Assembly: GCA_022787085.1 (NCBI GenBank)
Contig: JALFVE010000005.1
Coordinates: forward strand, 12,142 to 76,141
Direction of reading: 5' to 3'
Length of the DNA: 64,000 nucleotides
Source of the DNA: Oscillospiraceae bacterium
Lineage (GTDB): Bacteria > Bacillota > Clostridia > Oscillospirales > Ruminococcaceae
Below the pieces are notes generated by a model that saw only the letters and a program-made list of their open reading frames with translations, was not told where the DNA came from and did not search any database. A program made the translations under genes and the position numbers. This document shows positions 52,455 to 62,493 of the stretch, in pieces; the stretch's first letter is position 1, and every line of letters starts with the position of its first letter.

Positions 52455-52491
52455 AAGCTGCGGCAGGGAGATCTCTGCCGCAGCTTGTTTT
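52455..52491 (+). terminator. Terminator after the SBP gene
   Basis: AAGCTGCGGCAG/CTGCCGCAGCTT plus T-rich tail. Confidence 0.85.
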
Positions 52492-52547
52492 GTATTGTTA
52501 TAAAAAGCCGCCCCAATCGAGGCGGTTAAAATTTTTTATGAAGCAGC

Positions 52548-53012
52548 CTAATCCGAAGCCATCTCATCCGAAGCAAATCTCAACATCAGAAACATTGCCG
52601 CAGCAGAAATAAAAATTCCGATGATGCCGCCAACAGTCATGACCGTTCCATAGATCTCACCGCTAATAAAATACGTTGCCCACTTGAGCAGCCCCATTGT
52701 TATATTCACAAGTAAGCACAGCTTCAGATCGCCGAATTTATACTAATAACCATTTGTTCTATGGATAAAGACGGTGGATAGAATACGTCCAGTCAAGGAA
52801 AACGACCGCAGCAAGGCTTGCCGCCTTGCAAGGGAGTTTGACGCAGAGTGGGCGTATTATAGACACCGTATTTTGTCCATAGGTTAAATGGTTATTAGTA
52901 TTAAATCGGATAAACATGAGAGAAGCAATTGCGCCTAAAATTATAACTACGAGCTGCGTTCCGAAATAAACAAAGAACGGGACCATTGCTGTCAGGAAGT
53001 CAAAACCTTCAT
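52548..53012 (-). pseudogene. Small (~100 aa, about 3 TM) membrane-protein gene interrupted by a MITE-like insertion
   Basis: Removing 52741-52903 joins ...GAIASLMFIRF to KFGDLKLCLLVNITMGLLKW...ASDEMASD*; SD GGAAAGG and ATG at 53012 need one extra T to enter the frame. Confidence 0.8.
52741..52900. mobile_element. 160-bp MITE-like element
   Basis: 15-bp perfect TIR TACTAATAACCATTT (22/25 when extended), TTA duplicated at 52738-52740 and 52901-52903, no coding capacity, internal hairpin GCAAGGC/GCCTTGC. Confidence 0.85.
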
Positions 53013-53038
53013 TTTTAACTGACCTTTCCTTTAGTTTG

Positions 53039-53067
53039 GGCATAGAAGAAACCCGTTCTTCTATGCC
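53039..53067 (-). terminator. Terminator of the phosphorelay operon
   Basis: 12-bp perfect stem GGCATAGAAGAA/TTCTTCTATGCC, 17 nt after the stop; poor U-tail. Confidence 0.65.
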
Positions 53068-53083
53068 TTAACGAATAATCTTA

Positions 53084-56000
53084 TCAGAGCTTTTCCGAAA
53101 ACTTTTCAGCTGTTTCGGCGGCAGCCTCGTACTCAAAATCCTCCGCCGAAGCCATGATCTCATCGAGAACGGGTCTGAGAGGCACACCGCCCACCGAGCA
53201 GTCCGATATCTCGCCGCACAGTCTTTCGGCTTCATCTGCGTCAAAAGCAAGGCAGGCATTTCTGATATTTTCAAAATATTTCCTTGCCTTTTCCGCCTCA
53301 AGCTCCGTAAGCTGCTCATTTTCGGCAGGAGCTTCCTCCTCAGGAGCCTCATTTTCGCCGAGATATTCCCTTCCAAGCTCAGTGACCCTTTTGTAAAGCT
53401 CCAGAAGTCCGCTGTTTTTCTCTTCGATCACGCCGAAATTACCCTCCTTGCCCGAAAGCTCAAGCTCCTTGGCAAGGCTCGACAGCTCCTTTGAGCCAAT
53501 GTTAAGAGAGGAGCTTTTCAGCGCATGGACCTCGATAACATAATTTTTCCAGTCCTTTTCATTGAAAAGTCTTTCAATGCGCTCGGAAAGCTCGGGAGCC
53601 TTGCGGACGAAAAGTGCAAGTATCTCCTTATAAGCGTCCATGTCTCCGCCGGTGTATTTAGCTCCCTCCTCGGGACTGAAAAGCTCATTGCATTCCCCTT
53701 CATCCCGCTTTTGGACAGGATCTTCGGGAATCTGCTCCTCGCTGCGGACATATTCCCACAGTCTTTCGGGAAGATGACCGAACAGACATTTTTCAATATC
53801 CACGCCTGTAAAGGGCTTAGAAAGATAATCGTCAAAGCCTGCGTCAAGATAATCCTGCCTTGCCCCGTGTATCGCATTTGCGGTAAGAGCGATAAAGCAG
53901 GTACTCTGAGCAATATTTTCCTCTTTGATTTTTTTGAGAGTTTCAATTCCGTCCATTTCAGGCATCATGTGATCCAGGAAAACAATGTCATAATCGCCTT
54001 TTTTCAGCATCTCAATGCACTTCTGACCGCTTGCAGCCGTATCCAGCTTGACCATAGTACGTTTAAGCAGGCTCTTGGCAACAAGGAGATTAGTCTCATT
54101 GTCATCCACCACAAGAACTCTCGCATTGGGAGCGGTGCGTGCAGCAGCGTCAGTGTCCTGATGCCCTGCCGCAGCCTTGAAGCGCTGTTCAAAATCACCG
54201 ATAGGCTCAGCCTTAATAATGCGCTGCTCTATCTCGAAGGAGAAGGTGGAGCCCGAGCCGTAAACGCTGGAAACCTTCAGCTCGCTGCCCATCATATTGA
54301 GCAGGCGCTGAACGATAGACATACCCAGACCCGTTCCCTCAATGCTGCGGTTTTTTTCCTGATCGAGGCGCTGGAAGGAGGCAAAAAGCTTTTCCATATC
54401 CTCTTCCCTGATGCCGATACCCGTATCGGTCACGCTCACCTCAAGCCGCAGGATATCGTTTTCGATATGAAGCACCTTCATTCTGAAGCGGACATATCCC
54501 TCGGGAGTATATTTAACAGCATTTGTCAGAATATTTGTAATGACCTGCCTTATTCTCACATCGTCTCCGTAAAGCACCGACGGGATATTTTCGTCGATCT
54601 CGTAAATGAACCTGAGCTTTTTCTTTTCAGCCCTTATCCTGACCATATTAACAATATCGTTCACAAGGGAGCTGACATCGTATGAAACAGGCACGATCTC
54701 CATGTTGCCCGATTCGATCTTAGAGAAATCCAGGATATCATTGATGATAGACAAAAGCGTTCTTCCTGCGCTCCGGATATTAGCGGCATATTCGACGATC
54801 TGTTTTTCGCCCGATTCACGCATTATCATCTCGTTCATTCCGAGAACGGCGTTAATGGGAGTTCTGATCTCATGGCTCATATTAGCGAGGAAATCGTTCT
54901 TGGCTTTGCCTGCGCTGATAGCCTTGTCGGCAGCCTCTTTAAGCTCCTTGTTGACCTTTGCCTGCCAGCGAGTGATGCTGAGCATGATCGCATTAACGAT
55001 AACAATGCACAGGAAATAAACGCCGATATAAATAAGGTCGGAGTAAACAGTGCTGCCATAGGAATCATAAAAGCTTCTCACAACAAAAACATTGAAGCCC
55101 GATATCTCTTCCTTCATAGCAAGACAGCCCTTCTGAAAGCCGTCGTAATCGGTAAAAATCACCGAATCGCTGTCGATCTGTGAAAGAGCGGTCCTGTAGC
55201 AGATATCAGCGGCATTGACCGAGTAGCCGGGCTTCATCTGATACTCCTCATAGGGATGATTGAGGATATTTCCGTCAATATCGGTAATAAAGGCGTAGCC
55301 CTTGTCGGTATAGCTTTCGCCAAGGATACCGATAAGCTTGTCAAGGTAATAGTCGATACCCAGAACGCCTATAAAATTGCCCTTATCATCATAAACGATC
55401 TTGCTGAGAGTAGTGCAGTAAAGTCCCGTCTGCTCATCGAGATAGGGAGCGGAAACATTGAAATTCTCCCTTGAAACGAGGGTATCAATATACCACTGCC
55501 GCTCCTCAACGTGCCAGTTTGCGTCAGGCTCCCAGCCGTTGTTCATAAACACCGTATGCTCCCATTCGGGATTGCAGATGTAGACAACGGAAATATCATC
55601 ATATTTTGAAGCGATGCTGTCAAGATAAACGATAGCCGAAGCATAGTCCTCAGTAAAATGTGGCTGTGCGGCAATGCTGTCAGCGATCACATCCAGAACA
55701 GTCTTGTTGGTAAGCGCCCAGTCCCTGACCTGATCCAGATATATCTCAGTCTCCTGCTCCATTCTGACATTGCTCAGCTCAGTGTGAGTGATGGTGTTAA
55801 TAATAAATGTAACAACTCCTGTTGCCACCAGAACAAAGGTGACAAGAGCGATCATCAGCACATGATTAACAGGACTTGAATTATCCTTTTCATCGTTTTT
55901 CTCAGCCTTGTGGGAATTGGATTTATCCGACTCGGTGAACATTTCGTCCACCATGCGATTGAGATCATTAGCCGAATCGCCGATCTCTGCAGCTGCGCTT

Positions 56001-57064
56001 CCCTCACCCGAGGACGTACCCGAAAGGATATCCGCACGGCTGATTATTCTTGAAATGGGAAGTTTCAGCTCATTGCCCATGTCCTTGAGGAATTTATCCT
56101 TTGCGGCAAGCCTTCTTTCCGCCTCCGCCTTTTTTCGGCAGATACAGATATAGAATATCACAATAGCAGCGGACAGAATGAGCATAAACACAGCAATAAG
56201 CAGTGAATTGCCGGTAAGCGACGAGTATTCCTCGCCCCGTTTCACGCAGACAACAAGATACCAGTCATAATTGGTCTTGTCGGAAAAAACATTGTATATC
56301 TCGCCGTCCGACCTGTAATCGAAGGAATTGCCGTAAAGCATAAAGACCTTGTTGACAAGCTCGTAATAAAAATCCAGTTCTCTGTAATCTCTGCCGATGT
56401 ATTCCGAATTGGAATGGCCCACTATCATGCCGTTGGCGTCAACGATAAAGCTTGTTCCAGAACTGTTTGAGTTCATCTCCTCGATATACTGCTGAATGGC
56501 GCTCAGATTGAAATCCAGTCCCACAATGGTGGAGCCGTCGGAAAGGAGCTTTGAAATGCTGTAGCACATCTCCCCGGTGCTGGCGTCGATATAAGGCTCG
56601 GTAACGTTGACAGCGCCCATGCGTCTCTTAGCGCCAAGATACCAGGAGCGCTCGTCAAGCACGAAATCATCATCGGGAACAAAATCATTTATGTACAGCC
56701 TGCCGTCATAGGCAGCATATGCGCTGAAGCAGCTGCCGTCGGACTCGCTTCTGATATCCGCAATAGTCTCGGAGCAGAAATAATCATCAAGAAGCTCCGA
56801 GGTATCCCCGCCCATGGCAAGGATCTGCTCGATCTGCATAGCAACGCTGTCCAGAAGACATTCCGAACGATAAAGGCTGTTGCCCACACGTCCCGCAATG
56901 CTGCTGAGTCTGGTCTGACCCTCGGCTTCTATGCGTGCCGTGTCCGCACGTCTTATCAGAACGACATTCATAACAATGATGATACCGAGAGCAAGCATAA
57001 TAAAGAATAACGCCGCCCGATAGCCGCCGCTTAATTTAATCCTGCTTTTTTTCAATCCGATCAT
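53084..57064 (-). CDS. Hybrid sensor kinase: TM-dCache-TM-(pseudo-DHp)-TM-dCache-TM-HisKA-HATPase-REC-Hpt
   Basis: Two RSWY/RQWY...PY.D...G.....SK Cache motifs; MSHEIRTP, NAVKY, DTGIG, GTGLG; FLDHMMP; VHALKS; start ATG 57064 or TTG 57055. Confidence 0.92.
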   Translation of the reverse strand: MIGLKKSRIKLSGGYRAALFFIMLALGIIIVMNVVLIRRADTARIEAEGQTRLSSIAGRVGNSLYRSECLLDSVAMQIEQILAMGGDTSELLDDYFCSETIADIRSESDGSCFSAYAAYDGRLYINDFVPDDDFVLDERSWYLGAKRRMGAVNVTEPYIDASTGEMCYSISKLLSDGSTIVGLDFNLSAIQQYIEEMNSNSSGTSFIVDANGMIVGHSNSEYIGRDYRELDFYYELVNKVFMLYGNSFDYRSDGEIYNVFSDKTNYDWYLVVCVKRGEEYSSLTGNSLLIAVFMLILSAAIVIFYICICRKKAEAERRLAAKDKFLKDMGNELKLPISRIISRADILSGTSSGEGSAAAEIGDSANDLNRMVDEMFTESDKSNSHKAEKNDEKDNSSPVNHVLMIALVTFVLVATGVVTFIINTITHTELSNVRMEQETEIYLDQVRDWALTNKTVLDVIADSIAAQPHFTEDYASAIVYLDSIASKYDDISVVYICNPEWEHTVFMNNGWEPDANWHVEERQWYIDTLVSRENFNVSAPYLDEQTGLYCTTLSKIVYDDKGNFIGVLGIDYYLDKLIGILGESYTDKGYAFITDIDGNILNHPYEEYQMKPGYSVNAADICYRTALSQIDSDSVIFTDYDGFQKGCLAMKEEISGFNVFVVRSFYDSYGSTVYSDLIYIGVYFLCIVIVNAIMLSITRWQAKVNKELKEAADKAISAGKAKNDFLANMSHEIRTPINAVLGMNEMIMRESGEKQIVEYAANIRSAGRTLLSIINDILDFSKIESGNMEIVPVSYDVSSLVNDIVNMVRIRAEKKKLRFIYEIDENIPSVLYGDDVRIRQVITNILTNAVKYTPEGYVRFRMKVLHIENDILRLEVSVTDTGIGIREEDMEKLFASFQRLDQEKNRSIEGTGLGMSIVQRLLNMMGSELKVSSVYGSGSTFSFEIEQRIIKAEPIGDFEQRFKAAAGHQDTDAAARTAPNARVLVVDDNETNLLVAKSLLKRTMVKLDTAASGQKCIEMLKKGDYDIVFLDHMMPEMDGIETLKKIKEENIAQSTCFIALTANAIHGARQDYLDAGFDDYLSKPFTGVDIEKCLFGHLPERLWEYVRSEEQIPEDPVQKRDEGECNELFSPEEGAKYTGGDMDAYKEILALFVRKAPELSERIERLFNEKDWKNYVIEVHALKSSSLNIGSKELSSLAKELELSGKEGNFGVIEEKNSGLLELYKRVTELGREYLGENEAPEEEAPAENEQLTELEAEKARKYFENIRNACLAFDADEAERLCGEISDCSVGGVPLRPVLDEIMASAEDFEYEAAAETAEKFSEKL

Positions 57065-57143
57065 TTCCTTAGTATAAAGTTTCGGCAAACAGAGCCTTAG
57101 AATAATTGGAATATATCATCAGTCTGCACAAAGGCAAAAATCA

Positions 57144-58535
57144 TCAGTCCTTATTGATTGCCAAAACGCTGTTTCCTTCCATTCTTGCGATGCCGTATTC
57201 CAGCTTCAGCTGCTTGCCGATGTACAGCTTTTCAAAGCACCTGATGATCCTCTTGGCAACAAGATCGCCGTTTTGAGTGTTGGAATCCATCAGAATAACA
57301 ATGATCTGCTTGCTTGAATATCTGGTTGAAACATCCACACGTCTGAGAGATGTGTAGATTGCCTTGTCAAGCATTTCCAACGCAGCCTCCACCTCATCGG
57401 GAGCAGGCTCGCCGACGCCGTCAGCGGGAACAACGGTGAAAAGGATAGTCTGCACCTCTCTGCCGCTTCTGCTGACGAATCTCTTGATGAAATTGTAAAC
57501 ATGGTGGAAGCTTTCAAAATCCAGAAGATAAGCGCCTTTACCGCTGTCAGCACGGCTGAAAAGCTCACTGAGATAAGCAAGGTCAACGTTTTTAGCAGAG
57601 CGCTTCTTCTCCGACTCACTCTGATCGCTGAAGAAATGGTAAGAATTTTTGCCGTTCTGCTTAACGTAATAAAGTGCCTTATCAGCAGCATTGTAGAGCT
57701 TGCTGAAATCCGTACCGTCCTCGGGGGTCTGAGCGATACCGATGGAAACGGAGGAATTTGTCTCAAACTTGCACTGCTCCAGCTTGTAGCACAGGTCGGA
57801 TATAATGTCGGAAGCACGGTTGCCTATCTCGCTCTTTGAGTAAATATCCTTAGCAAAAACCACAAATTCATCACCGCCGATACGGCAGAGAATATCCTCC
57901 TCGGAAGCATATTTTCTGAGAGTGTCGGCAAACATAATCAATGTCTGATCTCCTGCGATATGACCGTAATTATCATTGATCGCCTTGAAATTATCCATAT
58001 CTATCATCATCAGAGCGCCCCTGACGCCCTCGGAGATCATATTGTTGACAGTTTCCTCGGTGTGAGCCCTGTTCCATAGCCCCGTAAGAGCGTCCTGACG
58101 GGATTTGCTTTTGATATCCGATACCTCTTTGGTTTTCTGCTCAAGTCTGTCCGCCAGATTGCGGCGCAATTCCTCCAGCTCAAGCACCCTGCCTATTCTT
58201 GAAAGCATGACCTCCGCAACGAAGGGCTTTGCGATAAAATCAACAGCGCCCTCCTTAAAGCAGCGGGTCTCAGTCTCGGTATCGTTGTCCGCCGTAAGGA
58301 AAATAACAGGGATATGCTTACAGCGCTCCATCTTTTTGATCCTGTCAAAGACCTCGAAGCCGTCCATTTCAGGCATATTGATATCCAGCAGGATAATGTC
58401 GCACTCACCGTTCTCAAGGTATGTAAGCGCCTGTTCGCCCCTCATAACGGGAATGACCTTATATTCACCGCTGAGCACCTTGCGGGCAGAAGCAAGATTA
58501 AGCTTGTTATCATCAACTATCAGAATATTTTTCAT
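57144..58535 (-). CDS. REC-GGDEF diguanylate cyclase with a second, degenerate GGDEF domain
   Basis: ILIVDD, LLDINMP, KPF; DALTGLWNR, RIGGDEF; C-terminal RRVD...RYSSKQ; start ATG 58535 with SD GAGGTG. Confidence 0.92.
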   Translation of the reverse strand: MKNILIVDDNKLNLASARKVLSGEYKVIPVMRGEQALTYLENGECDIILLDINMPEMDGFEVFDRIKKMERCKHIPVIFLTADNDTETETRCFKEGAVDFIAKPFVAEVMLSRIGRVLELEELRRNLADRLEQKTKEVSDIKSKSRQDALTGLWNRAHTEETVNNMISEGVRGALMMIDMDNFKAINDNYGHIAGDQTLIMFADTLRKYASEEDILCRIGGDEFVVFAKDIYSKSEIGNRASDIISDLCYKLEQCKFETNSSVSIGIAQTPEDGTDFSKLYNAADKALYYVKQNGKNSYHFFSDQSESEKKRSAKNVDLAYLSELFSRADSGKGAYLLDFESFHHVYNFIKRFVSRSGREVQTILFTVVPADGVGEPAPDEVEAALEMLDKAIYTSLRRVDVSTRYSSKQIIVILMDSNTQNGDLVAKRIIRCFEKLYIGKQLKLEYGIARMEGNSVLAINKD

Positions 58536-58545
58536 AAAAGCCACC

Positions 58546-59406
58546 TCATTCATCAATAATATACAAAACTCCGATCGCACCGGGACCGCAGTTGCTCGAA
58601 ACTGTTGCAGAAGCAGTTGTGACGATCACCTCGTCAAAGCTGTACAGCCGTTCGATCTCCGCCTTTAAAGCGTTTATCATCCTGACGGTACAGCCCGCAT
58701 GGGTGATAAAGAGCCTTTTTTTGTTGATTTTCCTGTTGTGCCGAAGCTCGCTTTTAATATACCTGACAACAGATTTTTCATAGCTGCCCGTCTGAACATT
58801 TTTCAGAGTCATCCTGCCGTTTTTCATGGTAAGCACAGGGTAGACCCTGAAAGCAGCGGAAAAATCCCGAACCGATTTGCTCACCCTGCCGTTGCGGTAA
58901 AGGTAGTCAACATTTCTTGTAATAAAGCTGGTGGAAACTCTCTTTTTAAGTGACTCCATTTCCGAGACGATCTCCTCTGCCCCTGAGCCCTTGTCCCGCA
59001 TATCCACAGCTCTTATGATCATATGCCCCATCCCCGTAGACAAATGATGGGAATCAATAACATGGACCCGACTGCTCATATCGCCCATCAGCTCCAGACC
59101 CTCGCAGGCGTTTTTGTAAGCGGCGCTTGTATCGCTGCTGATGCAGATATGAACGATCTCGTCGTATTTTCCGAGATATTGCTCAAAAAGCTCCTTGTAT
59201 TCGTCGGGAGTAGGCTCAAAGGTCTCCGCCTTTTCTCCGCCTTCCTCGAGATACTCGATAATATTTCTTGAATCGATCTCTTCGCCGTCACGAAAGCGAC
59301 CGGTTGCAGTAATGATGTAAAAATATGCGATCCCGATATCATGGAGCTTCAGATATTCCTCGGGAAGGTCGCAGACGCAGTCTGTGGAAATTCCTGTTTT
59401 CATCAC
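58546..59406 (-). CDS. DegV (EDD) family lipid-binding protein, atypical
   Basis: TDCVCDLP, ICISS..SAAY, IDSHHLSTGMG, L.RNGRV, ITHAG, NCGPGAIG. Confidence 0.88.
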   Translation of the reverse strand: MMKTGISTDCVCDLPEEYLKLHDIGIAYFYIITATGRFRDGEEIDSRNIIEYLEEGGEKAETFEPTPDEYKELFEQYLGKYDEIVHICISSDTSAAYKNACEGLELMGDMSSRVHVIDSHHLSTGMGHMIIRAVDMRDKGSGAEEIVSEMESLKKRVSTSFITRNVDYLYRNGRVSKSVRDFSAAFRVYPVLTMKNGRMTLKNVQTGSYEKSVVRYIKSELRHNRKINKKRLFITHAGCTVRMINALKAEIERLYSFDEVIVTTASATVSSNCGPGAIGVLYIIDE

Positions 59407-62090
59407 ATAACCTCCTCCGTTTCCGCTTCAAGCCTGGCGATCTCCTCTGAGGCAGCGTCGTATTCAAAATCCTCCGCCAGCTCAGCCGCCCTGCCGAAAA
59501 TTTCAGAAAGAGGTCTGCCCTTGCAGGAAAATCCCGCAGTCTCCTCAGCAACAGCCTTGACAGCGTCGCCGTCAAAGCCACGGCAGGCTTCCTTAGCCCT
59601 CAGTATGTATTCGGCAAGCTTTTCGGGTTCAATTTCCACAAGCTCGGCGCTGCTGATCTCCTTAGCCTGAATATCGTCATCCTGAGAGTCCTCACCGAGA
59701 TAATCCCTGATAATATCAATTACCTCGCCGTAAAGCCTTGACAGAGTGGCGTTTTTCTTTTCAATGGTGCGGTAGCTCTGCGCCTTGCCCGCAGCCTCAA
59801 GCTCCTTGGCAAGCCCTGAAAGCTTGACAGCGCCGATGCTCATTGAAGTGCTTTTGAGCGCATGGACCTCGATGATATAATTCTTCCAGTCCTTTTTTTC
59901 AAAGAGCTCATCAATATACTCTCTCTTTTCGGCGCCCTTTTTCACATACAGCTCAAGGATCTCACGATAAGCCTCCATGCTGCCTCCCGTGTACATAAGA
60001 CCCTTGTCGGGATCGAACATAGCCGAGCCTTCATTATCCGTTCTGCCTGCATTTTTGCGCCTGTCCGCACCCGAATATTCCGAAGCGGAGGGAGCCTGGA
60101 TATACTCCTTGGGAAGATAATTTCTGAGTATCCTGTCAAGAGCGGAAAGCTCGATGGGCTTTGCAAGGAAATCGTTAAGCCCCTCTCTGATAAACATCTC
60201 CCTGACGCCGTTGACAGCATTAGCGGTAAGAGCCACAATGGGCAGCTTTTTGTAATAATCGCCCTCCATCTCCCTGATTAGCTTAGTAGCCTCAACGCCG
60301 TCCATCTCGGGCATCATATGGTCCATAAACACAAGATCGATATCCTTGGAACGTAGCATATTTATAGCCGCAGGACCGCTTTCGGCAGTCATGACCTGCA
60401 TATGATAGGGCTGCATAAGACCCACAGCCACCTTGAGATTGATGGCATTGTCGTCCACAATAAGAATCCTTGCCTTAGGAGCGGAAAAGCGGATATCGGA
60501 GCCTCTCCGTTCATTTATGTTGATAACAATATTTTCATTGTTAAGCGCCGACACAACAGATATCGCATAAAAGGGCTTGAAAATGCACTTGATATTGTCG
60601 GGAAGATTGATAGCGTCCATTCTGTCCTGAATGACAAAGACCTCTGCCTTGTCAGCAATGCCCCCGAAAATGTCGGCATTTTCGATATATTCCTCCTTGC
60701 CCGCAAAGAAGTGGGTAAATTCGCCGCTTTCCGCCATAGCCTTCAGCTCGTCGCCGCTGCCGCAGCATCTGAAATCCACATCAAGCATCTCGCCCATTTC
60801 GGAGAAATGCCTCTGATAAACGTCATTCTTACCTGTTTTTCCGAAAAGACCCGCCGCATGTATAGCCTGAGGCTCCCTGACAGTGATAAAGGGTCTTTCG
60901 TCCGAGACCTTCATAGGGATAACAAAGCGAAATTCTGAGCCTCTTCCGTATTCGCTCCTTACGCTTATAAAACCGCCCATCTGACCGATAAGGCGCTTTG
61001 AAATGGCAAGACCCAGACCTGTGCCCTCAACGGAGCGGTTCTTCTTGGTATCCACCTGACGGAAGCTTGTAAACAGCTTTTCAATATTCTCCTCAGAAAT
61101 ACCGATGCCCGTGTCCGCCACAGAAACCAGAAGATTGATTCCGTAATCCTGCTTGGACCTGGAAACGGAAAGAGTAACAAAGCCCTTTTCGGTGTATTTG
61201 ATGGCATTGGTCATAAGGTTCACAATGACCTGCCTTATTCTCACCTCGTCGCCGATAATGCCTCTTGGGATATTGGGGTCAGCCTTGACGATAATGTCGA
61301 TCTTCTTGTTGCCCTTTCTCGCCTCGGACATATTGATAACCGTGTTCAGAGTGGAAGCGATGTTAAATTCATCGGGTATAAGCTCCAGCTTGCCCGATTC
61401 GATCTTTGAGAAATCCAGGATATCATTGATAATGGAAAGCAGACTTCTGCCCGAGGTCTGGATATTGAAGCAGTTCTCACGAACGCTCTCGCTGAGTCCG
61501 TTTTCACGGAGAATAAGCTCGCACATTCCCACAATAGCGTTCATAGGGGTGCGTATCTCATGGCTCATGTTAGCAAGGAAATCCGACTTGTAATGCTCCG
61601 CCTGCCTTGCCTCCATAACGCTCTGAGTAAGCTCCTCCTCGTTCTTATCCATACTCGTGATAAACACCATCAGGAAAAACAGCGCCGTGACCATAACGGA
61701 AATTCTGACAATGAAATGGGTAATATCCGTAATAGTCGCAAAGCTTACGCTTTCCATCACAAAAATATGGAAAAGGATCCCGCCCAGAATAAGCAGAGTA
61801 TATCCCAGCAGCAGCTTTGAATCCTTATAAACTGAAATAAGGATGGCAGCGCCCATAAAAACCATAATGGAGGGATAAATATCATTTTCCATAATGCTGC
61901 ACATAAAAATATTGGAAAAAGAAAATATCATTAGCACCACAGACTGCGCCTTGACGGAGAACTTAGGATAAAAAGTAATAACAGTCAGCACAGCGGCATG
62001 GAGAATAAGCATCCTGATGACCCGGGGATCCCAGCCGCTGAACACGCTCATAGCGCACATAATAGCCGTGCAGAATAAAAAAACCAGCAA
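59403..62090 (-). CDS. Hybrid sensor kinase: about 5 TM-HisKA-HATPase-pseudo-REC-REC-Hpt
   Basis: MSHEIRTP, NAIKY, DTGIG, GTGLG, FMDHMMP, VHALKS; TTG start at 62090 uncertain (frame open to 62150). Confidence 0.9.
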   Translation of the reverse strand: MLVFLFCTAIMCAMSVFSGWDPRVIRMLILHAAVLTVITFYPKFSVKAQSVVLMIFSFSNIFMCSIMENDIYPSIMVFMGAAILISVYKDSKLLLGYTLLILGGILFHIFVMESVSFATITDITHFIVRISVMVTALFFLMVFITSMDKNEEELTQSVMEARQAEHYKSDFLANMSHEIRTPMNAIVGMCELILRENGLSESVRENCFNIQTSGRSLLSIINDILDFSKIESGKLELIPDEFNIASTLNTVINMSEARKGNKKIDIIVKADPNIPRGIIGDEVRIRQVIVNLMTNAIKYTEKGFVTLSVSRSKQDYGINLLVSVADTGIGISEENIEKLFTSFRQVDTKKNRSVEGTGLGLAISKRLIGQMGGFISVRSEYGRGSEFRFVIPMKVSDERPFITVREPQAIHAAGLFGKTGKNDVYQRHFSEMGEMLDVDFRCCGSGDELKAMAESGEFTHFFAGKEEYIENADIFGGIADKAEVFVIQDRMDAINLPDNIKCIFKPFYAISVVSALNNENIVININERRGSDIRFSAPKARILIVDDNAINLKVAVGLMQPYHMQVMTAESGPAAINMLRSKDIDLVFMDHMMPEMDGVEATKLIREMEGDYYKKLPIVALTANAVNGVREMFIREGLNDFLAKPIELSALDRILRNYLPKEYIQAPSASEYSGADRRKNAGRTDNEGSAMFDPDKGLMYTGGSMEAYREILELYVKKGAEKREYIDELFEKKDWKNYIIEVHALKSTSMSIGAVKLSGLAKELEAAGKAQSYRTIEKKNATLSRLYGEVIDIIRDYLGEDSQDDDIQAKEISSAELVEIEPEKLAEYILRAKEACRGFDGDAVKAVAEETAGFSCKGRPLSEIFGRAAELAEDFEYDAASEEIARLEAETEEVM

Positions 62091-62296
62091 AGCAGCCTTA
62101 GCCGCAGTTTTTTTATCGGTAACGATATCGGTATATCTTGTTATAATAGATCATCCCTTTTCTGAGAGCAAAGTAATTCCGAAGGATGGCACACCTCTGA
62201 AGCTAAAAATAAAGCCTTCCCGTGCGCCGGTTGTAAACGGTTTCCATCTGCCGCAGCAGAGGAAATCAAGGGAAAAAAGCAGTTCTTATTATTCCT

Positions 62297-62325
62297 ATTT
62301 TACTATATTTCAGGCTAATAAGCAA
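62297..62325 (-). promoter_or_regulatory. SigA promoter of the phosphorelay operon
   Basis: TTGCTT (62325-62320), 17 bp, TAAAAT (62302-62297). Confidence 0.6.
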
Positions 62326-62493
62326 GATTTTTTTTGCAATTAAAGAAAAAAAACGATCTTTTTATACTTTTACCTCAAAAAACTCTTCCCAACAGCCCCG
62401 CTCCTTGTCGAATGTTAACGATAAGCATCAGAAATAAAAAGAGCAGAAAAAGACAGCCGAGCCGCATCGCAGCCCGACTGTCCTAATAAATAA

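Follow-up and report, generated by a model that had tools for sequence, protein, structure and literature searches.

A branch of DegV-fold proteins linked to hybrid histidine kinases in gut Clostridia and its possible role as a ligand-holding subunit of a c-di-GMP phosphorelay

To our knowledge, the only role described for DegV/FakB proteins is to carry fatty acids for fatty acid kinase. Here, we describe a DegV protein encoded in a 64,000-nucleotide (nt) stretch of an Oscillospiraceae genome (assembly GCA_022787085.1, contig JALFVE010000005.1, positions 12,142 to 76,141 of the forward strand), which is referred to below, as a whole, as the window. Its gene lies between those of a hybrid histidine kinase (HK1) and a predicted response regulator diguanylate cyclase (REC-GGDEF), and a second hybrid kinase (HK2) follows. 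A first-pass annotation of the window had proposed that this DegV was repurposed as a lipid sensor feeding a phosphorelay that controls cyclic di-GMP (c-di-GMP). The balance of the comparative evidence tips modestly towards the window DegV being a dedicated accessory subunit of the HK1 relay that holds a lipid-type ligand, and not a subunit of fatty acid kinase.

Among the described relatives, FakB1 and FakB2 (Staphylococcus aureus, Streptococcus suis and Streptococcus pneumoniae; structures 4X9X, 5UTO and 7W7H) have the same two-domain EDD/DegV fold as the window protein, which matches the family's hidden Markov model (HMM) over its full length. In FakB1, a network of Ser171-His270-Thr62-fatty acid-Ser95 holds the carboxylate, Arg173 is needed for catalysis, and the 'completely conserved' Arg205 is key to FakA binding and makes the first membrane contact (PMC8892158). 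In FakB2 of S. suis, the substitution R202A, at the counterpart of Arg205, removes both FakA binding and activity, and R170A, at that of Arg173, removes activity (PMC10848957). Counterparts of Thr62, Ser95 and the catalytic Arg173 are retained in the window DegV, but it is only 17-24% identical to these proteins and falls in a separate clade. Linked DegVs of this clade also differ from FakB in their setting: a hybrid histidine kinase is in every case encoded alongside them or joined to them in one protein, and fakA or pls genes never are.

Other systems offer precedents for the regulatory use of such proteins. In DhaQ-DhaS of Lactococcus lactis and DhaK/DhaL-DhaR of Escherichia coli, a substrate-binding EDD-fold paralogue of a kinase has likewise been re-used as the ligand-sensing partner of a regulator, and DhaQ has been described as a 'macromolecular inducer' of DhaS (PMC4325133). 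DhaQ (2IU4/2IU6) is among the structural neighbours of the DegV model, if distant (template modelling score, TM-score, ~0.5), and by analogy may be seen as the nearest conceptual precedent for a kinase-linked DegV. The Dha systems differ in their ligand, dihydroxyacetone, and in their partner, a TetR-type or AAA+ transcription factor and not a phosphorelay. In S. aureus, cellular free fatty acid has been linked to the activity of the intramembrane-sensing histidine kinase of SaeRS (PMC5539427). There, the effect of Fak is indirect, via the fatty-acid pool, and FakB is not a signalling component, whereas here DegV is genetically hard-wired to a kinase. H-NOX proteins are small stand-alone ligand-binding proteins that are co-transcribed with kinases and modulate relays ending in c-di-GMP turnover. 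They differ from DegV in their haem fold, their ligand (nitric oxide) and their gene order and fusions. A literature search for DegV together with histidine kinases, fusions, c-di-GMP or receiver domains found no description of such a link, although its coverage was incomplete and absence is no proof.

A kinase-linked branch of the DegV family

The window DegV scores far above the cut-offs of the family models (PF02645: E 6.5e-52, 177 bits against a cut-off of 27, residues 3-283; TIGR00762: 185.4 bits against 99.7). With the FakB1 equivalog model NF038249, by comparison, it reaches 80.2 bits, well short of the cut-off of 350. An AlphaFold2 (AF2) model of the protein (predicted local distance difference test, pLDDT, 86.9; predicted TM-score, pTM, 0.86) has Foldseek TM-scores of 0.84-0.88 to lipid-loaded DegV/FakB structures (2DT8, 1PZX, 4X9X and 5UTO).

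The linkage between DegV and the kinase is kept far beyond this strain. Using one genome per species, 73 loci from Oscillospiraceae and Lachnospiraceae were collected by orthologue alignment and the peptide pattern DCVCDLP, and their open reading frames (ORFs) were annotated by BLAST against the domains of the window proteins. In nearly all of these loci, an HK1-type hybrid kinase is encoded directly upstream of DegV on the same strand, wherever upstream sequence is available, and the kinase stop lies at most 10 nt from the DegV start in 52 of 61 split pairs. Most Oscillospiraceae loci also encode, downstream of DegV, a protein with REC, GGDEF and the C-terminal domain of the window cyclase. 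When 780 neighbouring ORFs from 86 loci were clustered, the only widespread families were the kinase (82 loci), DegV and REC-GGDEF (52 loci), and no conserved lipid-metabolism gene was found among them. Clusters of the kinase-linked clade usually encode either a REC-GGDEF cyclase or a REC-HD-GYP phosphodiesterase as well. The first-pass annotation had stressed a 'dual hybrid-kinase' layout, which was rejected as a conserved feature, since HK2 orthologues occur only in the closest relatives (L009, L010 and L029, with fragments in L005/L112). The core that is conserved consists of kinase, DegV and c-di-GMP response regulator.

DegV-kinase fusions, which the first-pass annotation had suggested searching for, are numerous. 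In 22 loci, mostly from Lachnospiraceae, DegV is the C-terminal domain of a protein of ~890 amino acids (aa) with the order transmembrane region-HisKA-HATPase-REC-DegV. This architecture was confirmed by Pfam in Roseburia zhanii (locus L047, 8159-10834), where a kinase with pseudo-receiver, REC and Hpt and a REC-HD-GYP protein are encoded upstream of the fusion. The H-box is intact in 22 of 22 fused proteins and the REC Asp motif in 20, and the linker between REC and DegV is near constant at 25-29 aa. A protein-database search limited to the DegV part of the fusion returned at least 892 clusters in the fusion's length range; the best 120 of those clusters are all HisKA/HATPase/REC/DegV proteins and, where named, are called only 'DegV family protein'. 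The Lachnospiraceae fusions belong to the same clade as the window DegV and have in common with it the Cys-x-Cys motif, C239, N272 and the lost docking Arg, as well as a like context of partner kinase (pseudo-receiver, REC and Hpt) and c-di-GMP response regulator. They differ in three respects: the window DegV is a separate polypeptide, translationally coupled to its kinase; the fused systems mostly have REC-HD-GYP proteins, as opposed to the REC-GGDEF cyclase of the window; and the window DegV keeps more of the FakB-like head-group residues.

Further arrangements were observed among the loci. In another genome of the same genus (G013), a tandem kinase-DegV-kinase-DegV-REC-GGDEF array lies on one strand (L035, 2541-11713, the same as L115), which implies that the kinase-DegV pair duplicates as a unit. 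An intermediate architecture, in which a ~700-aa kinase ending at REC, without Hpt, is followed by a stand-alone DegV, was seen in L065, L069, L070, L073, L075, L077 and L124. The DegVs of these loci group with the fused forms in the tree, and L065 and L077 further carry separate REC-Hpt and x-REC proteins.

As an unbiased control on the motif-selected loci, every DegV match in 24 related genomes was recorded with 5-kb flanks. Of 49 matches, 48 were usable (one was a 128-aa contig-end fragment), and these comprised 13 kinase-adjacent, one fused and 34 unlinked DegVs. Together with the three DegVs of the window's own genome, the census holds 51 genes, 16 linked and 35 unlinked. Cys-x-Cys is present in 14 of 16 linked but in none of 35 unlinked proteins (Fisher p 9e-11), while Arg at the FakA-docking position is found in none of the linked and in 32 of the unlinked ones (Fisher p 1.4e-10). 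At least one kinase-DegV cassette occurs in 9 of 16 genomes of the genus, with up to three in some, and none was found in the nine census genomes from other families of the order.

The linked DegVs are set apart in the phylogeny as well. An IQ-TREE analysis (LG+C20) was made of 77 DegVs: those of the census, three of solved structure taken from the phmmer alignments, and some from the loci collected by motif. A single branch separates all 39 kinase-linked DegVs in it, whether split or fused, from the rest (ultrafast bootstrap, UFBoot, 100; Shimodaira-Hasegawa-like approximate likelihood ratio test, SH-aLRT, 100; 100% of 200 bootstrap trees). Their sister group consists of four unlinked DegVs from other families (DSTCDLP...SHCG) that keep the docking Arg, and the clade of the genus housekeeping FakB lies elsewhere in the tree, so that the window DegV does not cluster with ordinary FakB. 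It belongs instead to a monophyletic branch whose members are in every case either coupled in translation to a kinase of one hybrid family or joined to such a kinase behind its receiver.

Residue changes across this branch were compared in a 129-sequence alignment of 91 kinase-linked and 38 unlinked DegVs. Positions in the window protein were mapped to S. aureus FakB2 by a phmmer alignment with 4X9X (T62=T61, S94=S93, R174=R170 and N272=H266). The four motifs read in the first-pass annotation, namely TFEP (62-65), the Ser of SAAY (Ser94), the Arg of NGR (Arg174) and NCGPG (272-276), are correct by both sequence and alignment. That annotation did not mention the two most telling features, which are the loss of the FakA-docking Arg and the clade-specific Cys-x-Cys. 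At the docking position (T206 in the window DegV), 35 of 38 unlinked proteins have Arg and 0/91 linked ones do, most of the latter having Ile, Val, Met or Phe. The preceding Lys (V204), kept in 36/38 unlinked proteins, is mostly Ile, Val or Phe in the linked clade. The basic K-x-R patch with which FakB meets FakA and the membrane has thus turned hydrophobic, as would be expected of a new protein-protein interface.

Other changes fall in the loops on which FakB has its head-group residues. The Ser-x-Ser of FakB is Cys-x-Cys in linked DegVs: C10 is Cys in 90/91 linked proteins (unlinked: Ser in 32/38, never Cys) and C12 in 89/91 (unlinked: 7/38). C239 is present in 83/91 linked and 8/38 unlinked proteins, C273 in 60/91 and 5/38, and S266 is Ser in 87/91 linked proteins where 28/38 unlinked ones have Gly. 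On this alignment, Cys-x-Cys, C239 and the Asn-Cys pair look to have been gained at these very loops. The full clade signature consists of [TA][DE]C-x-C-DLP, C239, S266, N272, a hydrophobic residue at the docking-Arg site and one residue inserted behind G207; the window DegV matches it with TDCVCDLP (C10, C12), C239, S266, N272-C273, V204/T206 and S208. Of the carboxylate network, the window protein keeps T62 and S94, with His replaced by Asn272 and Ser171 by Asn172. Across the alignment, S94 is Ser in 74/91 linked and 38/38 unlinked proteins, and the catalytic or latch Arg at the tunnel entrance (R174) is present in 46/91 and 38/38. The change from His to Asn in NCGPG, which had been taken as telling, is not specific and was rejected as diagnostic: N272 is Asn in 87/91 linked proteins, but unlinked ones have His in 19 and Asn in 16 of 38, and the housekeeping FakB of the genus (TDSASDI...AANSGPD) carries Asn too. 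This Asn lies at the position of the carboxylate-network His of FakB1/FakB2, so that even FakBs presumed to be functional do not all have the His.

The rest of the genome (2.5 Mb in 56 contigs) encodes one FakA/YloV, on contig C14, and three DegV genes. One of these is of the housekeeping type found throughout the genus (C2, 59407-60276; orthologues L094-L108). Another forms a second kinase-DegV cassette (contig C39, 32919-37021; locus L003 spans its DegV part). This DegV has 292 aa and the motif TDCGCDLP, and is 49% identical to the window DegV. Its partner, a Cache hybrid kinase of 1077 aa, contains the pseudo-receiver, REC and Hpt domains as well as the C-terminal domain; the core of this kinase is 67% identical to HK1, and its stop overlaps the DegV gene by 4 nt. 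No response regulator adjoins this cassette. An orphan 349-aa response regulator is encoded on contig C4 (89948-90994), with a receiver 63% identical to that of the operon cyclase; proteins of this type elsewhere are REC-HD-GYP proteins inside DegV clusters (L019, L029, L034 and L047), and the orphan may provide this relay with a phosphodiesterase arm.

Proposed role and competing explanations

In the mechanism that we favour, DegV would be a stoichiometric partner of HK1, translationally coupled in this lineage and covalently tethered in others. The ligand in its pocket would be an amphipathic molecule of the carboxylate type, a fatty acid or related lipid being the most likely, as suggested by the closed DegV fold and by the T62, S94 and R174 kept in the window protein. 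The remodelled surface of DegV may bind the cytoplasmic receiver or pseudo-receiver region of HK1, and pocket occupancy would alter the flow of phosphate from His to Asp to Hpt to REC-GGDEF, and thereby c-di-GMP synthesis. The six-transmembrane input of HK1, which has no periplasmic domain, would fit a membrane- or lipid-directed input with DegV as the soluble ligand-holding partner. In this lineage only, the cyclase would receive a second, independent input from outside the cell through the Cache regions of HK2. The idea in the first-pass annotation of a repurposed relay component, distinct from ordinary FakB, agrees with the synteny, the fusions, the tree and the lost docking Arg. A fatty acid as the ligand, and a flow of information from DegV to the relay, are what we infer from these comparisons.

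A possible contact site lies within HK1 itself. Every DegV-associated kinase has a conserved segment of ~135 aa between HATPase and REC, which adopts a CheY-like alpha/beta fold with weak structural matches to receivers (TM-scores 0.5-0.58). Among the ~10 hybrid kinases of this genome, this pseudo-receiver is confined to the two DegV-linked ones, which makes it a candidate for the site at which DegV docks. That this place might instead hold a docking domain resembling FakA or DegV was also considered, and was rejected because the segment folds as a CheY-like pseudo-receiver with a KPFY motif and no acceptor Asp.

Several observations weigh against the proposed role. The functional assignment is drawn from comparative genomics, and the 73 loci were selected by the DCVCDLP motif, which makes its invariance there circular; only the census of 25 genomes is unbiased, and it is small. 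DegV always lies on the C-terminal side of a receiver domain, where outputs usually sit and sensors do not, and this position fits an output role equally well. REC followed by effector is the normal domain order of response-regulator outputs. It is thus conceivable, if unlikely, that phosphorylation of the receiver controls lipid uptake, holding or handover by DegV, and that the relay, instead of being regulated by lipid, adjusts the handling of lipids or the make-up of the membrane alongside c-di-GMP. This would suit the short, fixed linker with which DegV follows REC in every fusion, and the position of the split DegV genes behind kinases whose last modules are REC(-Hpt). Against it stand the lack of a conserved plsX, plsY, fakA or acyltransferase gene near DegV in the 86 loci, and the absence from the clade of the Arg that meets FakA, which leaves no evident downstream acceptor for a carried lipid; moreover, the conserved terminal outputs are c-di-GMP enzymes. 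The ligand itself may also be of another kind. In the fusions, the head-group residues decay (S94 to Gly in 12/22; R174 to Tyr, Lys or other residues), so that a carboxylate ligand cannot be assumed for every clade member, while the conserved cysteines hint at other chemistry involving a metal, redox or a covalent ligand. A DegV fold re-tooled as a sensor of a metal ion, redox state or a thiol-reactive molecule through C10, C12, C239 and C273 would explain why these residues are frequent in linked and rare in unlinked DegVs and why, by the 4X9X alignment and the FakB1 network (PMC8892158), they would lie on or next to the carboxylate-network loops and residues. The single fused member without C10 (L121) also lacks C12. 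We nevertheless regard a non-lipid sensor as distinctly unlikely, given the good superposition of the whole fold, acyl tunnel included, on lipid-loaded structures and the fact that most stand-alone members retain T62, S94 and R174.

Residual FakB-like chemistry is conceivable too, as the window DegV keeps T62, S94 and R174. Together with the FakA encoded in the genome and the high DegV HMM scores, these residues would be expected if the protein were an ordinary FakB paralogue that delivers fatty acids to FakA and sits in a signalling operon by chance. The first-pass annotation had noted that the window holds no fakA, which is correct but carries little weight with fakA on contig C14. The reading is strongly disfavoured on other grounds, and we hold it to be extremely improbable: the docking Arg is gone from the whole clade, and FakB2 without it (R202A) neither binds FakA nor is active (PMC10848957); the clade stands apart from the genus housekeeping FakB with full support; the FakB1 equivalog score is 80 bits against 350; and the kinase linkage is kept across two orders, with hundreds of fusions. 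A further proposal involves the exchange of phosphoryl groups. Receiver domains can autophosphorylate from small acyl phosphates such as acetyl phosphate. FakB-type proteins hold acyl-phosphate as product (PMC9136124), and a DegV-bound acyl-phosphate might act as phosphodonor to the receiver Asp, or a bound fatty acid as a phosphate sink, so that the relay would read the acyl-phosphate pool. The tether of 25-29 aa after REC in the fusions, and the head-group residues and catalytic Arg kept in the window protein, are compatible with this, but the same residues are lost in many fusions (S94 to Gly, R174 to Tyr or Lys) and such an exchange is without precedent; its probability is accordingly put at a very low level. 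Stated more broadly, kinase-linked DegV might be a chemical participant in the relay, with an acyl-phosphate or fatty acid beside the receiver Asp that phosphorylates or drains the receiver or, in a variant, with a covalent or metal-bound ligand at the Cys-lined site. We consider this very unlikely. If it were true, phospholipid synthesis would be connected directly, through its acyl-phosphate pool, to the control of c-di-GMP.

Genes and boundaries of the operon

Four co-oriented ORFs, identified with Pfam and NCBIfam as HK1, DegV, REC-GGDEF and HK2, fill 53084-62090 of the minus strand (Table 1), as had been described in the first-pass annotation. Its account of the junctions also holds at the sequence level. 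The HK1 stop TGA (59405-59403) and the DegV start overlap inside GTGATG, with a Shine-Dalgarno sequence (GGAGGAGG) just upstream, and 10 nt separate the DegV stop from the cyclase ATG. The gap between cyclase and HK2 is 55 nt and holds no terminator.

Table 1. Features of the operon and its flanks in the window (nucleotide positions are those of the window; aa, residues of the protein named)
Feature	Position	Strand	Description
Intrinsic terminator of upstream gene	62450-62484	minus	16-bp stem, 9 GC pairs, T-run; belongs to an unrelated beta-helix-repeat gene (ORF typed by Pfam)
Candidate promoter-like site	62297-62325	minus	TTGCTT-17 nt-TAAAAT, read by eye; leader of ~200 nt to HK1
HK1, hybrid ('unorthodox') histidine kinase	59403-62090	minus	895 aa; HisKA, HATPase_c, Response_reg, Hpt (Pfam)
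HK1 transmembrane region	aa 1-148		~6 transmembrane segments, hardly any loops
HK1 HisKA	aa 168-233		H-box HEIRTP at 177
HK1 HATPase	aa 280-394		Pfam
HK1 pseudo-receiver	aa ~401-520; 60531-60890	minus	CheY-like; KPFY motif, no acceptor Asp
HK1 REC	aa 542-654		DLVFMDHMMP at 583
HK1 Hpt	aa 710-772		HALKS at 743
Acidic C-terminal domain, ~95 aa	HK1 aa 800-895, 59406-59693; HK2 C-terminus, ~53084-53380	minus	
DegV-fold protein, kinase-linked clade	58546-59403/59406	minus	285 aa from ATG 59403 or 286 aa from GTG 59406
Response regulator diguanylate cyclase, REC-GGDEF	57144-58535	minus	Pfam domains
Cyclase REC	aa 4-114		acceptor Asp in DIILLDINMP
Cyclase GGDEF	aa 147-297		GGDEF motif intact
Cyclase C-terminal domain, degenerate GGDEF-like	aa 306-463 (~160 aa); 57147-57620	minus	weak partial GGDEF match (E 2.5e-5), no GGDEF motif
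HK2, second hybrid kinase, double Cache	53084-57088	minus	1334 aa; dCache, HisKA, HATPase, REC, Hpt
Hairpin directly after HK2 stop	53039-53067	minus	12 bp, no T-run; read from sequence, not called by terminator scan
Hydrophobic ORF	52759-53043	minus	94 aa, no Pfam match; between HK2 stop/T-less hairpin and first clear terminators
Two consecutive terminator-like hairpins	52455-52525	minus	T-runs; first clear terminators downstream of operon (terminator scan)

The proposal of one promoter and one terminator agrees with the sequence in part. On the 5' side, the operon is delimited by the strong terminator of the unrelated gene upstream, and the 360-nt intergenic region that follows before HK1 (62091-62449, minus strand) holds the candidate promoter-like site and the leader. 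This site is absent from the list of a sigma-70 scan, which returned 16 sites against 14.7 in shuffled sequence and is uninformative on the promoter because its count does not stand out from the shuffled one. A search of the 5' leader and operon against Rfam found no riboswitch, c-di-GMP riboswitches included, and no other known RNA; its sole match was sub-threshold (E 0.69) and lies at the downstream terminators. At the 3' end, the hairpin after HK2 has no T-run, and clear terminators come only after the small hydrophobic ORF. This hairpin is possibly a weak terminator or an RNA-stabilising element, and the ORF may be a fifth gene of the transcript or non-coding.

Both kinases have the H-box His, ATPase, receiver Asp and Hpt His of unorthodox hybrid kinases. 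In HK2, two periplasmic Cache-type regions lie between transmembrane segments and are followed by HisKA, HATPase, REC and Hpt, with the H-box HEIRTP at 739, the receiver Asp at 1032 and the Hpt motif HALKS at 1188. After Hpt, HK1 and HK2 both end in a conserved acidic helical domain (...EDFEYDAA...) that has no Pfam match. It is common to HK1-type kinases in most loci, and in HK1 it directly precedes the DegV start. In the cyclase, the position of the RxxD I-site reads SEED, and the I-site is therefore absent. The C-terminal domain of the cyclase is 47-83% identical across the family and may be a degenerate regulatory or dimerisation domain.

Significance for gut Clostridia

What appears to be new here is the recruitment of a known ligand-binding fold and family as a dedicated phosphorelay module. 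A large and well-separated branch of DegV proteins seems to have been taken over by two-component signalling in the Oscillospiraceae and Lachnospiraceae, abundant Clostridia of the gut and rumen, and to be tied there to enzymes that make or break c-di-GMP. This also carries a warning for annotation, in that genes labelled 'DegV family protein' would be miscounted as FakB paralogues. The split form found in the window is experimentally convenient, as its DegV could be expressed alone, loaded with ligand or stripped of it, and titrated onto the kinase, while the natural fusions indicate the region beside which DegV works. If the lipid-sensing role is true, kinase-linked DegVs would provide a cytoplasmic fatty-acid input to a phosphorelay, a direct and hard-wired counterpart of the indirect effect described for SaeRS. 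It would also suggest how gut anaerobes may couple host or dietary lipids to motility, adhesion and biofilm formation under the control of c-di-GMP.

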